Shown here: positions 5,939-12,766 of the stretch, in pieces
Numbering within the stretch: position 1 is the stretch's first letter
How the letters are laid out: the number at the start of each line of letters is the position of its first letter
Assembly (NCBI GenBank): GCA_019419955.1
Contig: JAHZIB010000001.1
Coordinates: 29,971 to 93,970, forward strand
DNA length: 64,000 nucleotides
DNA from: Clostridiales bacterium
GTDB taxonomy: Bacteria > Bacillota > Clostridia > TANB77 > CAG-508
Reading direction: 5' to 3'
The notes under the pieces: model-generated
Told to the model about the DNA's origin: nothing
The model's input: only the letters and a program-made list of their open reading frames with translations
The model's database searches: none
Made by a program: the position numbers and the translations under genes

Positions 5939-6233
5939 TTGAAACTCCCTGTGCAGGCTTCAAATGTGCAATAACCATGATCTACTAACTCTTACTTCTA
6001 AATGGAATAAACCCAAATTATTAGACAGAAAAGTTTAATAATTTGGGGGGCACTTCTGTTGACAGTTCATTACATATTAACTGGCAAACCACACTTGTTG
6101 ATTTTCCATTTGTTATTTTTATAATACTTAAAACTTAAAAAATGTCAAACAAAATATAAAAATTATATTTTCTATTTTACTAATAAATTACTATATTTTA
6201 AGTTTTTTATAGCGTTTTATCAACTTTTATAGA

Positions 6234-6252
6234 GTTGTTATAATTTGGAGCA
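6234..6252 (+). repeat. Island left-end direct repeat (att-like): gttgttataatttggagca, identical to 12681-12699
   Basis: 19/19 nt identical to the 3' end of tRNA-Gly(b) plus 12 nt of its 3' flank. Similarity extends to about 27 nt, with a 6-nt indel (ttatag[ttcgta]agttgtta). Confidence 0.8.
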
Positions 6253-6344
6253 AGTCACATACAAGTTACGAACTTCGTTCTCTTTCTTATATAATGTGAT
6301 TATATCTAATTCAAAATAAAAATGCAATAGCAAAGTTATATATT

Positions 6345-8075
6345 TTATGCTCCATTCCATTTTGGAATATATTTTGCATCTTTTGAAACTAGAGTAATTA
6401 TATTTTTTCCATCAACAACTTTTCTTTCATAAAATTCGCAGTTAGCTAGCAGTATTTTTGTACTTTTTAAACTAAATCTATAATTAAATAAATCTATATC
6501 TTTACTTAAATCAGTTACTATATTTTTATATTTCCTTTCATCATAATCATCAATATAAAATGATGCTTTTATATTGTCTTTTAACTTATAATTTTTATTT
6601 TGACTATCATAATAAATTAAGTTAATTTCAAATTCATTTTGATAGAAATAGTCTAAATTATATTTTATTTTTATATTAAATTTCTTTTCTATATATATAA
6701 TTTTTTGCAAAAGTCTTTTATAATTTTTGAATACCTGATAATCATTCTCATTATAATTTTTATTTCCTAAATTTCTCATAACAAAATACTCTTTATTCTC
6801 CTTAATATGTTGCACACTTACCTTACTATTGCAACTATTAATTGTAAATAAGAATTTTTGTATCTCTAAATTCTCTTTACAAGAATATTTATATTTTTCT
6901 CTTAAAGTTATATTAATATTAGCATTATATTTTATAAAACTATTATCAATATCTCTATGTTCTTCTAGAATGTTTATCTTTAATGTAATATCAAAACATT
7001 CTTCTTTTGCTTCAAAATTATTAAAAATTATATGTTTTTTTTGAACATCTACTACTTGTAAAGCAGTACTTTTTATGCTAAATTTTTCTATTCCATCACT
7101 AATAATTATTTTATATTTTTCTCCTTTTGGAAGTTCTTTAGGAAGAATATATAATTTAATATCACCATCTTTTGCATAGTTACAATCAGAAAATGGATTT
7201 TCATATTTTCCAATATATTCCCTTACTTCTGAAACATAAGGAATTTCAATTGGTCTTCTTTGTATTGTAGCTTCTCTAATCAAATTATTAACCCCTCCAT
7301 TTTTTATAAAATCTTCTTTTTCCTTTGGACTATTAAACTTCATTTTGAACTTTTCTTGCATAGGATGAAGTTCATATGCATTTTCTACTTTTGGGTTTAA
7401 TACATATTTCAATTCTTCACCAACTATCTTCGCTTCAACATTAAAACATTTTCGTAATTCTAATGGTAAATTCGTATTTGTAAGAATTTCTTTTGTTAAT
7501 GCAATTTTTTCTGTATATTCCTTTTCCACTTTTGGTATGTTATTTTTATTCTCAAATACTACATCTAAAGAAATATTATCCTTTATACCAATAACACACC
7601 TTAAAATATTATTTATTTGCTCTTGTTTTACCAGTTCTAAATTCTTAATAATATTTATCAATTCAAAACAAGAATACACGTCATCTTTTAAAGAAAAGTA
7701 GGTTGTATCTATATTATTTTTGGGACTATATTTAATTTTTTCATCAATAACTAAAAACTTTAATCTTCTGTATTCCTTATCTAAATTATTGTCTTTAAAT
7801 TTTTTTAATGTCTCTTTAATTTTTTTTATACTTCTTTCAGAAGTAACTTGAAATGTTATCTGTTTATTTTTATCTCCTAAATCTACTGCTGGATACAAAT
7901 ATTTGTTATTAAGATTTACTAAATCATAATCATATATTATATTTAATATATCTTTAAAGGGTGTTTCTAGTAGAGTATTTATATCATTTAAATTAGCTTT
8001 ATTTTTCAATTTTACTTGATATATAATAATCGATAAATTAGTTGAAATTTCATTAATTATATTTTCTATTTTCAT
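6345..8075 (-). CDS. Hypothetical 576-aa protein, defense-island type (possibly SMEK-like N-terminal domain)
   Basis: No catalytic motif recognised. The N-terminal roughly 100 aa resemble N-domains I recall from abortive-infection and defense-island proteins. Located inside the tRNA-linked island, immediately next to the R-M pair. Confidence 0.6.
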   Translation of the reverse strand: MKIENIINEISTNLSIIIYQVKLKNKANLNDINTLLETPFKDILNIIYDYDLVNLNNKYLYPAVDLGDKNKQITFQVTSERSIKKIKETLKKFKDNNLDKEYRRLKFLVIDEKIKYSPKNNIDTTYFSLKDDVYSCFELINIIKNLELVKQEQINNILRCVIGIKDNISLDVVFENKNNIPKVEKEYTEKIALTKEILTNTNLPLELRKCFNVEAKIVGEELKYVLNPKVENAYELHPMQEKFKMKFNSPKEKEDFIKNGGVNNLIREATIQRRPIEIPYVSEVREYIGKYENPFSDCNYAKDGDIKLYILPKELPKGEKYKIIISDGIEKFSIKSTALQVVDVQKKHIIFNNFEAKEECFDITLKINILEEHRDIDNSFIKYNANINITLREKYKYSCKENLEIQKFLFTINSCNSKVSVQHIKENKEYFVMRNLGNKNYNENDYQVFKNYKRLLQKIIYIEKKFNIKIKYNLDYFYQNEFEINLIYYDSQNKNYKLKDNIKASFYIDDYDERKYKNIVTDLSKDIDLFNYRFSLKSTKILLANCEFYERKVVDGKNIITLVSKDAKYIPKWNGA

Positions 8076-8161
8076 AATTTTACTTCCTTAATTTCTAATA
8101 TTTATGATAACTAATAAAAAATCAAAATAATATAATTATACTATCTTGATTTTCATCAGAA

Positions 8162-8968
8162 TTAAAAATACAAAGCTTTTATATTAGCAATTGCTTCTTT
8201 TATGTAATTAGCACTTTTTTTATATTGCTCAAAAACAATTTCAAATCCATTTTCATCATCACATACAAAATTCCAATAGTCTTTCCCAATCAATAGTTCT
8301 TTCTCATCAAAATATTGCCTTACTTGGCTTTGTTTCCAATCATTTCCCTCTCCAAATTTATTATAGGCTGTTGCAAATAAAACCTTTATTTTTTCATCAC
8401 TATTTTCCAACTTATTTTTTAATAAAAAATATTCCCTTAACAATTCTATTTTTTCAGCTTTAGATTTCTTATTATCTAAATCTCCACCTGCTTTTAGTTC
8501 TATTATATAATGTTCTCTTTTTTCTGGACTATAAAAGTAATTATCTGTTTCATGACTTGTCATATAGCTAGTTATATCTCTAGGTTTTACCCAAGAAAAA
8601 TTTTCATAATCTTCTTTTTTTGGTGGTACATGATCATTGTATACTGTCATTAAGTAATCAATATGTTGTGTTTGTTGTGGTAACAAGTAAGATTCAATTC
8701 TACCATTAACTTCATATGATAATTTTGCAATTGCATTTCCTACATTTTCCAATACATTTCCAAAACTTGAATCGAATGATCTGACAAATGCTGAATAGAA
8801 CATAAATTCTTCTCCAAGTTCTGCCATAAAAACATTATTCTTTTTAGAGTTTATGACCCCATTTGGATCATCTACTTCTTTAATATGTCTTACTTCAAAC
8901 CCATCTGCAAAACTTTTTATGCTACTATCGATTATCTCATTAATTGCTTTTCTTTTTAAATTTTCCAT
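8162..8968 (-). CDS. Putative type II restriction endonuclease
   Basis: 268 aa. Lies 16 bp downstream of a Dam-family methyltransferase. Possible PD-(D/E)xK-like segment YIIELKAGGDLD. Assignment is by context. Confidence 0.55.
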   Translation of the reverse strand: MENLKRKAINEIIDSSIKSFADGFEVRHIKEVDDPNGVINSKKNNVFMAELGEEFMFYSAFVRSFDSSFGNVLENVGNAIAKLSYEVNGRIESYLLPQQTQHIDYLMTVYNDHVPPKKEDYENFSWVKPRDITSYMTSHETDNYFYSPEKREHYIIELKAGGDLDNKKSKAEKIELLREYFLLKNKLENSDEKIKVLFATAYNKFGEGNDWKQSQVRQYFDEKELLIGKDYWNFVCDDENGFEIVFEQYKKSANYIKEAIANIKALYF

Positions 8969-8983
8969 TTTCTATAATTCCCC

Positions 8984-11929: not shown

Positions 11930-12120
11930 AAAATTACCTCCCACTTATCCTGTGAATTTTTTTAGGTTTTGTATAGTAAAATTTCAAAAAAACTTAAAAA
12001 AATTTTATTTCTTTCATATATTTGCTCACAAAAGTCAACTTTTGCCCCCTTAATTTTGAAAAAAATTTTTTTATTCCTCCATATGTTTCCTAACTAAAAT
12101 GCGTTTTTGCAATCTATATT

Positions 12121-12408
12121 TTAAAATTTCTTTAATTTTATGAGAATTTGTTTTATTTCTTTGAGATTATACTTTTGTTTATATTCTTTAATATAAAAAT
12201 TCTTATTAGCTATTTCATTTACTTTATATTCGTAAATAGTAAGAGTAGAAGGATATGTAATTACATATTCAGTTGGTTCAATAAATTGTAAATTAGTAGC
12301 CCTTAAATGCTTAATTTTACCATTTTTAATTGTATAAACATAGTTTTTAATAATTTCTAATATTTCTGCATTTGGCTCTAATTCTTGTACTATTTCAAAT
12401 TCAAACAT
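12121..12408 (-). CDS. Hypothetical protein, 95 aa (island)
   Basis: ORF only. Confidence 0.35.
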   Translation of the reverse strand: MFEFEIVQELEPNAEILEIIKNYVYTIKNGKIKHLRATNLQFIEPTEYVITYPSTLTIYEYKVNEIANKNFYIKEYKQKYNLKEIKQILIKLKKF

Positions 12409-12527
12409 AAAAAATGCCCTCCTTTCTGGGAAGAGAACATTTTAGTATTTTTATGAAGTTCAATTCATCTTTTCTAAAAATGAAAAAACAACCTACAAAC
12501 CTTTATAGTTCGTAAGTTGTTAGAGTA

Positions 12528-12601
12528 TGGAGCAGGTAGCGGGAATCGAACCCGCGCGATCAGGTCGGAAGCATGACATTCTACCACTAAATTATACCTG
12601 C
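12528..12601 (-). tRNA. tRNA-Gly(UCC), divergent copy, probably island-borne
   Basis: Cloverleaf GCAGGTA..TACCTGC, TTCGATT T-loop, anticodon loop CTTCCGA. Shows a U30-C40 mismatch in the anticodon stem and G37. The 3' flank is a degenerate copy of the att core. Confidence 0.7.
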
Positions 12602-12680
12602 ATTCTTCAATAATAAGTATAGCATTATTTTTTTATATAGTAAAGAGAAAAAAACAACTTACAGACCTTATAGTTCGTAA

Positions 12681-12699
12681 GTTGTTATAATTTGGAGCA
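12681..12699 (+). repeat. Island right-end direct repeat (att-like), overlapping the 3' end of tRNA-Gly(b)
   Basis: Identical to 6234-6252. Confidence 0.8.
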
Positions 12700-12766
12700 G
12701 GTAGCGGGAATCGAACCCGCATAGCCAGCTTGGAAGGCTGGAATTCTACCATTGAACTACACCTGC
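12693..12766 (-). tRNA. tRNA-Gly(UCC)
   Basis: Perfect cloverleaf. Anticodon stem CCAGC/GCTGG, loop CTTCCAA. Highly similar to Bacillus tRNA-Gly(UCC). Discriminator U73. Confidence 0.9.

Follow-up and report, generated by a model that had tools for sequence, protein, structure and literature searches.

The tRNA-Gly locus

In a stretch of 64,000 nucleotides from the genome of a Clostridiales bacterium (assembly GCA_019419955.1, contig JAHZIB010000001.1, positions 29,971 to 93,970; hereafter referred to as the window), a block of AT-rich genes is located next to two tRNA-Gly genes and is framed by a perfect direct repeat of 19 nt. A preliminary description of this block as a genomic island integrated at a tRNA-Gly 3' end had placed a serine recombinase, a restriction-modification (R-M) pair, a large defence-type gene and three small open reading frames (ORFs) between the repeats and had noted a particularly high AT content. 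The gene content is borne out by Pfam, PADLOC and NCBIfam, and the composition by a GC content of 0.20-0.25 across positions 6000-11000, as compared to about 0.28-0.33 in the flanks. In the following, compared contigs are referred to by L-numbers and recombinase homologue proteins by P-numbers.

The 19-mer, GTTGTTATAATTTGGAGCA, matches exactly at 6234-6252 and 12681-12699 on the forward strand, and a version with three mismatches, GTTGTTAGAGTATGGAGCA, is located at 12516-12534, in agreement with the coordinates and the degenerate third copy given before. Three such matches occurred in none of 100 dinucleotide-preserving shuffles (expected number, 0.05), and within the window the 19-mer is not a common repeat. 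As likewise reported, the right copy spans the 3' end of a tRNA-Gly gene and its flank: it consists of the last 7 nt of the outer tRNA-Gly (TGCTCCA, including the encoded CCA) and 12 nt of downstream sequence. Read in the sense of the tRNA, TGCTCCA is followed by AATTATAACAAC, the first twelve bases of a strong hairpin with a T-run, AACAACTTACG...TGTAAGTTGTT-TTTTTTT, which is present 3' of both tRNA-Gly genes. Both genes lie on the reverse strand and were identified as tRNA-Gly(tcc) by ARAGORN and Rfam, the inner one (type B) at 12528-12601 with 60.6 bits in Rfam and the outer one (type A) at 12693-12766. Type A is preceded by a promoter at 12790-12818 (TTGACA-17-TATAAT, 12/12 consensus matches), beyond which a tRNA-Trp gene is located on the forward strand at 12901-12976 (ARAGORN, Rfam). 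In the window, the last 28 nt at the 3' ends of types A and B are identical. In this lineage tRNA-Gly B has the type-A-like acceptor pair A3:U70, as opposed to G3:C70 in all related species examined, which would be explained by two compensatory changes or, alternatively, by conversion of one tandem paralogue by the other. Rfam searches of the whole window, and a permissive run on 5350-6400, returned tRNAs only, apart from meaningless miRNA matches.

Three copies of the hairpin, all on the reverse strand, can be distinguished. The first (hp1; 12648..12692; -13.5 kcal/mol, z -4.2) is intact, is located directly behind tRNA-Gly A and holds the right 19-mer. The second (hp2; 12487..12527; -17.2 kcal/mol, z -5.4) follows tRNA-Gly B and was also recovered in a terminator scan; hairpin and T-run together resemble a terminator for the tRNA. 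The third (hp3; 6215..6245) is a decayed arm of the same type just beyond the distal junction of the island, which became apparent in a gapped alignment to both tRNA-Gly hairpins. It reads AATTATAACAACT, followed by CTATAA and AAGTTG after two small deletions, has lost its fold (-4.3 kcal/mol, z -1.45) and contributes 12 of the 19 repeat bases. The sequences AATTATAACAACT and AAGTTG are common to hp1 and hp3, while hp2 differs at these positions. The perfect match of the repeat is thus 19 nt long, as originally stated, but a gap-tolerant reading prolongs its left copy into a whole decayed hairpin. In related species, the hairpin was seen only where island-type genes follow.

The truncated recombinase

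The recombinase gene (11066..11929, reverse strand, within a 292-aa ORF at 11066-11944) matches only the Resolvase and Recombinase families of Pfam. Residues 1-281/283 are 83-86% identical to homologues of 464-496 aa; among relatives of 444-496 aa, some have a Zn_ribbon_recom match (PF13408) on record, e.g. P0011 and, with a weak match, P0017. The alignment of the window protein ends at LFTGI, where the zinc ribbon is expected to start, and the C-terminal tail is found in another frame, as residues 458-496 of P0017 match frame -2 at 11130-11014 by tblastn. Relative to the intact element of L104, about 576 bp are absent, corresponding to the zinc-ribbon and coiled-coil region. Of the catalytic, Recombinase and zinc-ribbon/coiled-coil parts that define a large serine recombinase (LSR), the window gene retains the first two. 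Because of this internal deletion the element is no longer autonomous, and what the window holds is, judged by this gene, a remnant and not an intact LSR element. All 21 contigs read that encode the exact 287-aa recombinase product share the deletion, and since they derive from many samples, we regard the deletion as fixed in this lineage. The out-of-frame tail is part of a 141-aa ORF without family match (10693..11118, reverse strand), the remainder of which represents a downstream backbone gene; positions 10854-11085 are homologous to the ORF that follows the LSR gene in L104.

Among NCBIfam models the recombinase best matches CcrB (149.8 bits, 1e-43), XisF and CcrC (123.8 bits), all far below the cutoffs (900 each for CcrB and CcrC), and it is therefore not a Ccr recombinase. 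The nearest solved structures are the catalytic domains of the TP901-1 integrase and of TnpX (2mhc, 1.3e-07, a weak match). In a recurrent fusion protein of 315 aa (P0119 and relatives; L099-L103, 10001-10948), ~200 N-terminal LSR residues precede a C-terminal portion of TnpV. The fusion is widespread, occurring on contigs of up to 1.5 Mb, and is annotated in GenBank as 'TnpV protein'; such LSR-TnpV internal deletions seem to be a common decay route of these elements.

Ends and targets of the element family

The recombinase gene is part of a module of fixed order that is located directly 3' of a tRNA CCA and consists of the hairpin, a second hairpin at a ribosome-binding site (RBS), a gene for a protein of 92-95 aa (orf95) and the LSR gene. 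The module follows tRNA-Gly B in the window, tRNA-Gly A in L047 (orf95 80% and LSR 89% identical), tRNA-Thr(cgt) in L097 and L104, and tRNA-Cys(gca) in L098; in addition, L030 has the hairpin without an LSR behind tRNA-Gly B, and L003 has it behind tRNA-Thr(cgt). Members of the family begin right after the GCTCCA of the tRNA and end in a conserved arm, GTTCGTAACTTGTATGTGAYTY-GCTCCA. In the window, comparison with the distal ends of the family places the distal core copy GCTCCA, the putative crossover region of attR, at 6246..6251 on the reverse strand, adjoined by the conserved distal arm (P arm, ...AGAAAGAGAACGAAGTTCGTAACTTGTATGTGACTT; 6252..6311, reverse strand), which includes an exact 22-mer at 6255-6276 that is unique in the window. 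The possibility that a third, decayed tRNA gene lies upstream of the left GCTCCA was ruled out, as the sequence there is the distal arm itself. L104 holds a 6.1-kb element with both ends, the distal one reading AGAAAGAGAACGAAGTTCGTAACTTGTATGTGATTC-GCTCCA and being followed by unrelated sequence; its arm at 15583-15624 corresponds to that of the window at 6252-6290, with 33 nt identical, and GCTCCA alone is duplicated.

A metagenome scan with 19 nt of the distal arm as query returned at least 120 stretches, and the arm thus occurs at at least 120 gut-metagenome loci. Among the matches listed, GCTCCA follows the arm in 113 of 122 usable instances, and 72 different 12-mers follow arm and GCTCCA. 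The sequences beyond GCTCCA fall into native terminators, proximal arms of other LSR elements (at least 28) and another hairpin of the type described here (type 1; at least 8). On contigs with both ends, the elements measure 1.1-8.2 kb and are located at tRNA-Gly(tcc), Gly(gcc) or Thr(cgt); this size range indicates that many of them are deletion derivatives. In members with both ends on one contig, the duplication is GCTCCA or GCTCCAT, that is 6-7 nt.

An unoccupied and an occupied site are represented by L101 and L100, which are otherwise collinear at 98-99% identity. In L101, a tRNA-Gly gene is followed by a resident type-1 remnant (tRNA-Gly...CCTGCTCCA|TTTGAAATCAACTTACGG). In L100, 5.1 kb are inserted exactly between CCA and the resident hairpin, so that this hairpin now lies beyond the distal junction of the new element, and only GCTCCAT (7 nt) is duplicated. 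The insert encodes a 90-aa protein, a 464-aa LSR, a Mob_Pre relaxase and three small proteins. This pair of alleles shows both the short core and tandem accretion. The layout of the window is the same as that of L100, with GCTCCA between the distal arm and a hairpin of the same type, and L171, one of the loci with another type-1 hairpin beyond GCTCCA, has this configuration with an imperfect repeat of roughly 40 nt. At least two further types of LSR element occur at the GCTCCA target, with proximal arms TAAGGTAAAATCGTCGCACC... and TAATGCATTTTCGTCGAAC...; they were seen in L021 (345-379 and 6413-8269), in L017 (1-41) and at ~28 metagenome loci, and are often stacked with the type described here. 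Several LSR lineages thus use tRNA 3' ends as common landing pads.

These ends bear on two other explanations of the repeats. The preliminary description had seen in them the classical signature of site-specific integration into a tRNA 3' end, which implies a long identity core of tyrosine-integrase type. On this view, attL and attR would share all 19 nt as their genuine core, and integration would be attributed to a tyrosine integrase that has since been lost. A perfect 19-nt repeat over a tRNA 3' end is indeed the textbook pattern, and the resident recombinase is defective. However, no tyrosine recombinase domain was found in the seven main ORFs of the island or in the related elements examined, 12 of the 19 nt belong to the hairpin arm of the element and not to the tRNA, the same arm and hairpin flank LSR genes at at least 120 loci with 6-7 nt duplicated, and the ends of the element combine into a symmetric 48-bp site of LSR type (see below). 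We therefore consider this explanation highly improbable, and the implied long identity core is not upheld. Alternatively, the repeats might stem from local events at the tRNA-Gly 3' ends and their terminators (duplication, gene conversion or homologous recombination) instead of tandem insertion, and the gene block would then be a mere variable region. The identical 3' 28 nt of tRNA-Gly A and B, the type-A acceptor pair in tRNA-Gly B and the single hairpin of L047, which looks like a recombinant of hp1 and hp2, would be in line with such events. Still, the left GCTCCA is preceded by the conserved distal arm of the family and not by tRNA-like sequence, and conversion may account for hp1 but not for the island or its ends, so that this explanation is improbable as well, if somewhat less so than a lost integrase.

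A symmetric candidate attachment site and a proposed mechanism

Joining the distal and proximal ends of the element yields a 48-bp site, GTTCGTAACTTG-N10-GCTCCA-N8-CAACTTACGRAC (in full, GTTCGTAACTTGTATGTGATTCGCTCCATTTGAATACAACTTACGGAC), and such a site was found in the window as well as in L104 and L171. The outer 12 nt, GTTCGTAACTTG and CAACTTACGRAC, are inverted repeats with 10-11 of 12 matches centred on the CT of GCTCCA; the left stem of hp2 represents the mirror half of this inverted repeat and matches the distal arm at 11 of 12 positions. Length, imperfect inverted repeat and central dinucleotide correspond to the architecture of LSR attP sites (about 40-50 bp), and the site is accordingly a candidate attP with a putative crossover at the CT of GCTCCA.

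Based on these features, we consider it likely that positions 6246-12527 of the window represent the degenerate remnant of a site-specific LSR integrative element of 6.3 kb with a history of stacked copies. In the proposed mechanism, the outer inverted repeats of attP would serve as half-sites for the recombinase, while the centre copies the last bases of the tRNA, and the LSR would recombine attP with the terminal GCTCCA of tRNA genes in which CCA is encoded, the targets seen so far being Gly-tcc, Gly-gcc, Thr-cgt and Cys-gca. The tRNA would be left intact, and the hairpin and T-run of the element would substitute for the displaced native terminator; orf95 and the recombinase gene would come to adjoin the tRNA, with the cargo beyond. 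A newcomer would always land between CCA and the resident element, and arrays would accumulate in this way. The element in the window would have landed behind tRNA-Gly B (attL at its GCTCCA end), ahead of the hairpin of an older copy, of which ~30 nt (6215-6245) would now be left. By this event a duplication of 6-7 nt would have become a 19-nt perfect repeat, because the distal junction abuts the decayed second hairpin copy. Most likely, hp3 is a remnant of such tandem stacking, which is common in the family. Later, the ~576-bp deletion would have removed the DNA-binding and synapsis domains of the recombinase, the backbone genes of TnpV type would have been lost, and the deletion would have fixed the island in the lineage, including the R-M system and the SMEK gene described below.

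How the recombinase might accommodate several tRNA genes can be addressed tentatively. It is conceivable, though we would not favour it over other possibilities, that the LSR of this family recognises generic tRNA features, namely the T-arm (GTTCGAWT), the acceptor end and the encoded GCTCCA, and that the attP arm mimics them. Compared with the T-loop in the tRNA, the attP-arm sequence GTTCGTAA is displaced by 4 bp away from the core, an offset that recalls the one by which the half-sites of attP and attB differ in LSRs that have been studied structurally. If true, the family would provide a natural multi-target LSR that is harmless behind several tRNA species, brings its own terminator and builds up arrays of defence genes next to CCA.

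The target gene and the extent of the mobile unit

The two tRNA-Gly(tcc) paralogues of types A and B are conserved across the clade. In L017, L021, L027 and L028, the A-B tandem adjoins tRNA-Trp and has unrelated native terminators and no such element, and in L028 ordinary genes follow directly after tRNA-Gly B, representing an unoccupied site in a related species. Because the tandem exists in these element-free relatives, tRNA-Gly B is probably a chromosomal paralogue and more likely the target of integration than cargo. The divergent tRNA-Gly had previously been taken as cargo, which is not supported by these contigs, although one variant of the locus keeps such a reading alive. In L003 (2662-2760, equivalent to window 12693-12766), tRNA-Thr(cgt) replaces tRNA-Gly A and is fused to hp1 exactly at GCTCCA, whereas the left flank is unchanged with respect to the window; this arrangement occurs in two assemblies, and genes for SH3/dockerin and cadherin-like proteins are located beyond the tRNA-Thr(cgt).

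This variant would fit a mobile unit with the boundaries of the preliminary description, extending from the distal repeat to tRNA-Gly A (6246-12692), with tRNA-Gly B and hp2 as cargo; such a unit would have become composite by accretion, would move as one piece and could use any tRNA ending in GCTCCA. In L003 and one similar contig, the entire block of hp1, spacer, tRNA-Gly B, hp2 and island continues exactly at GCTCCA into tRNA-Thr(cgt), certain sequence features are common to hp1 and the distal remnant but not found in hp2, and accretion mobilising neighbouring islands has been proposed for the ssrA islands of Dehalococcoides (PMC3146451). On the other hand, the tandem without hairpin or element in the four relatives named above, and the canonical order of tRNA, hairpin, orf9x and LSR, which in the window corresponds to tRNA-Gly B, hp2 and orf95, argue for tRNA-Gly B as the boundary. 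The retained left flank of L003 points to a rearrangement or an assembly join and not to a clean second insertion, and the contigs with the right flank of L003 end inside tRNA-Thr. Most plausibly, hairpin copies at two tRNA genes underwent a rearrangement; a search for close contigs by way of the SH3/cadherin-like neighbour gave only contigs that break inside tRNA-Thr. Taken together, we regard a composite unit including tRNA-Gly B as unlikely, yet as the most plausible of the three alternatives.

Contigs of the same species were obtained by exact-protein look-ups of both flank proteins and of the recombinase; those contigs with the exact recombinase product that were mapped to the window align with it at 99.8-100% identity. 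No empty site was present in any informative contig of this set; all of them carry the island contiguous with its flanks. Contiguity of the same gene content with the flanks and lack of an empty allele had been named beforehand as evidence against a mobile origin. This counter-evidence partly applies, as the pattern holds in every same-species contig found; mobility is seen only in relatives of the family. In 80 related species, synteny of the left flank is not conserved, and an orthologous empty site including the 485-aa gene to the left of the island was not found.

Several observations weigh against an LSR element that inserted behind tRNA-Gly B. For this element neither an empty site nor a circular junction or an alternative location was detected in its own species, and to the left of 6234 no sequence of the presumed older element with homology to a family member was recognised, the window containing a single distal arm. 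A single insertion behind tRNA-Gly B leaves the intact hp1 unexplained, which might go back to gene conversion, to an earlier element that has been almost erased or to a composite unit with tRNA-Gly B; hp3 matches hp1 more closely than hp2, and the L003 block joined to tRNA-Thr(cgt) would fit a mobile unit that includes tRNA-Gly B. The putative crossover position is deduced solely from symmetry. Finally, many LSR genes of the family are themselves truncated or frameshifted.

Backbone and cargo genes

All further genes and elements of the island described here are encoded on the reverse strand. The backbone of the family retained in the window comprises hp2, orf95, the truncated LSR gene, part of the gene following it, a 70-nt cis element and the distal arm. 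The TnpV and NikA-type genes of L104 have been lost or replaced, and the R-M pair, the SMEK gene and a small ORF are found instead. The orf95 gene (12121..12408) always precedes the recombinase gene in the element family, a position that is kept in L047, L097, L098, L101 and L104. Its product has homologues in 1478 clusters and no known domain, and no match was obtained in Pfam, PADLOC, PHROG or NCBIfam. AlphaFold yielded a best model with a pLDDT of 83, with the five models disagreeing (83 down to 40), and a fold search with Foldseek against the PDB returned nothing below E = 3. Upstream, a conserved hairpin, AAAATGTTCTCTTCCCAGAAAGGAGGGCATTTT (12411..12443), includes the orf95 ribosome-binding site and contains its Shine-Dalgarno sequence (GTTCTCTT..AGAAAGGAGG). 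The motif ATGTTCTCTT..AGAAAGGAGG of this hairpin is kept in L030, L047, L097, L098 and L104, which suggests that translation of the integration module might be controlled at this position.

An ORF at 10250-10693 without match in Pfam, PADLOC or PHROG is assigned 105 aa (10250-10567) by gene callers, likewise in L003-L005, and its upstream part overlaps the conserved non-coding backbone element of ~70 nt (GTCCTAGCaAGCAaTGAATTTGTACTCCCGCACAAA...TATGGGA...CCCATACCC; 10600..10675). The latter was identified by alignment with L104, L101 and L097, in which the corresponding segment is located after TnpV. In L104 it sits between the TnpV gene and the NikA-like gene, and for this reason it is a candidate oriT. 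A Pfam scan detected no relaxase in the window, and the remnant is not classed as an integrative and mobilizable element (IME), which would carry a relaxase and/or oriT of its own. Among the relatives, L104 has the TnpV gene and the NikA-like gene, and a Mob_Pre relaxase occurs only in the tandem type-2 element (L099/L100). Because some relatives carry mobilization genes, the element of the window was probably mobilizable in the past.

The cargo proper includes a gene for a Dam/D12-class N6-adenine DNA methyltransferase (8984-10117; PF02086, 6e-42), which scores 189 bits against the NCBIfam dam subfamily (cutoff 115). It is separated by 15 nt from a gene for a type II restriction endonuclease of the TdeIII/HinfI type (RE_TdeIII; 8162-8968; PF09520, 1.6e-42), and the adjacency of endonuclease and methyltransferase genes of matching class identifies the pair as a predicted type II R-M system. 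The large gene at 6345-8075 encodes a SMEK_N protein of 576 aa (Pfam SMEK_N, 3e-34; NCBIfam SMEK_N). Its PADLOC match to Aga_REase-PNTD1-PNTD2 (4e-31) is restricted to the N-terminal 166 aa, and the SMEK domain is predicted to be a nuclease domain of defence type. The gene is polymorphic: in L003 and L004 it is split into parts of 87 aa and 444 aa, and in L009 and L015 it diverges at window position 7130, so that a product of 318 aa results, and the contig stops 55 nt further on. This divergence suggests another insertion or an alternative C-terminal module.

Strain variation around the island

Contig breakpoints at 5827 and 12830 (L008, L001, L012 and L013), which were considered as island borders, turned out to be junctions of strain-specific insertion sequence (IS) insertions, and several 7-kb contigs cover exactly 5818-12845. 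The two IS are bounded by terminal inverted repeats and have duplicated 9 bp (GTTTCTTCT, 5818-5826) and 16 bp (AAATTTTATAAATTTT, 12830-12845) of target sequence, the latter duplication being unusually long; the right-hand IS encodes the C-terminus of an IS30-like transposase. In some strains, two different IS bracket a 7.0-kb segment with the island and both tRNA-Gly genes in a layout that resembles a composite transposon.

To the left of the island, a gene for a 485-aa pilin-like protein (3973-5430) encodes a prepilin-type N-terminus as well as fn3/Ig and CxxC repeats. Upstream of it, a (CT)n microsatellite at 5677-5700 has 12 units in the window and most contigs and 17 in L007, and might possibly act as a switch for phase variation. 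A near-consensus promoter, TTGACA-16-TATTAT (6148-6121, reverse strand), is located further upstream of this gene; downstream of the promoter come first a hairpin and T-run (~6000-6050) and then an extended, imperfect hairpin (~5870-5956), neither with a match in Rfam. The region 5850-6150 on the reverse strand may thus represent an unannotated leader or small RNA.

Relation to known elements

SCCmec cassettes (CcrAB/CcrC) insert by means of LSRs at the 3' end of rlmH, form composite tandem cassettes and exchange cargo. The element of the window resembles them in LSR insertion at the 3' end of a conserved gene, in direct repeats that exceed a few bases and in a best NCBIfam match to CcrB. It differs in that this match reaches 150 bits versus a cutoff of 900, the target is a tRNA gene instead of rlmH, and the cargo is related to defence and not to resistance. 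With tRNA islands, prophages, IMEs and integrative conjugative elements of tyrosine integrases it shares the intact tRNA 3' end, a direct repeat, low GC and defence cargo, but it is distinguished from them by the lack of a tyrosine recombinase, a core of 6-7 nt and a symmetric LSR att site.

The closest precedent with respect to behaviour is provided by the ssrA islands of Dehalococcoides, which use the CcrB-like LSR DsiB, insert at the 3' end of the tmRNA gene, are flanked by a 20-bp repeat and accumulate in tandem arrays that include decayed members (PMC3146451). Both are integrative and putatively mobilizable, depend on an LSR with CcrB as the best match here, leave the 3' end of a small stable RNA gene intact, and show a direct repeat of ~20 bp and tandem arrays in which many members lack an integration module. 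In contrast to the ssrA islands, which use the T-loop of a single tmRNA gene, the present family uses the GCTCCA end of several tRNA genes, has an intrinsic duplication of 6-7 nt and orf95 with one LSR instead of a DsiA/DsiB pair, and resides in a low-GC lineage of gut Clostridia.

According to a 2017 review of IMEs, site-specific IMEs with serine recombinases usually disrupt dispensable genes, and Tn4451 is of low specificity with an identity of 2 bp (PMC5704250). With Tn4451/Tn4453 (TnpX, TnpV, TnpZ) the family shares a clostridial host, an LSR and a very short duplication at the junctions (PMC5704250); among the relatives, L104 has TnpV, P0119 combines a truncated LSR with a C-terminal TnpV segment, and a MobV/Mob_Pre relaxase is encoded in the neighbouring type-2 element. 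It differs from these transposons in its specificity for tRNA 3' ends and its weak match to TnpX, and the copy in the window has neither relaxase nor TnpV and a dead recombinase. A limited literature search did not turn up any account of LSR elements for which the CCA ends of several tRNA genes serve as targets.

Implications

The view of the island as the remnant of a mobile element at the 3' end of a tRNA-Gly gene is supported, while the mechanism and the boundaries first assigned to it need correction. It is an ordinary integrated-element remnant with defence cargo at a tRNA gene, now fixed and non-autonomous, and at the level of the genome the result is modest, as a fixed and dead island explains the AT-rich defence cluster and the conspicuous repeat. 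For programs that call genomic islands it implies some caution, since a long direct repeat at a tRNA gene can stem from a short LSR core together with the homologous arms of neighbouring elements. In addition, attP/attB pairs with several natural targets could be of interest to those mining LSRs as integration tools. The wider value is seen in an abundant family of LSR elements in uncultured gut Clostridia that is, as far as our literature search showed, undescribed. Its att architecture can be read from sequence, it targets at least four tRNA species without damaging them, and it is stacked in tandem, a behaviour nearer to that of tyrosine-integrase islands or the Dehalococcoides ssrA islands than to that of the IMEs reviewed previously (PMC5704250).

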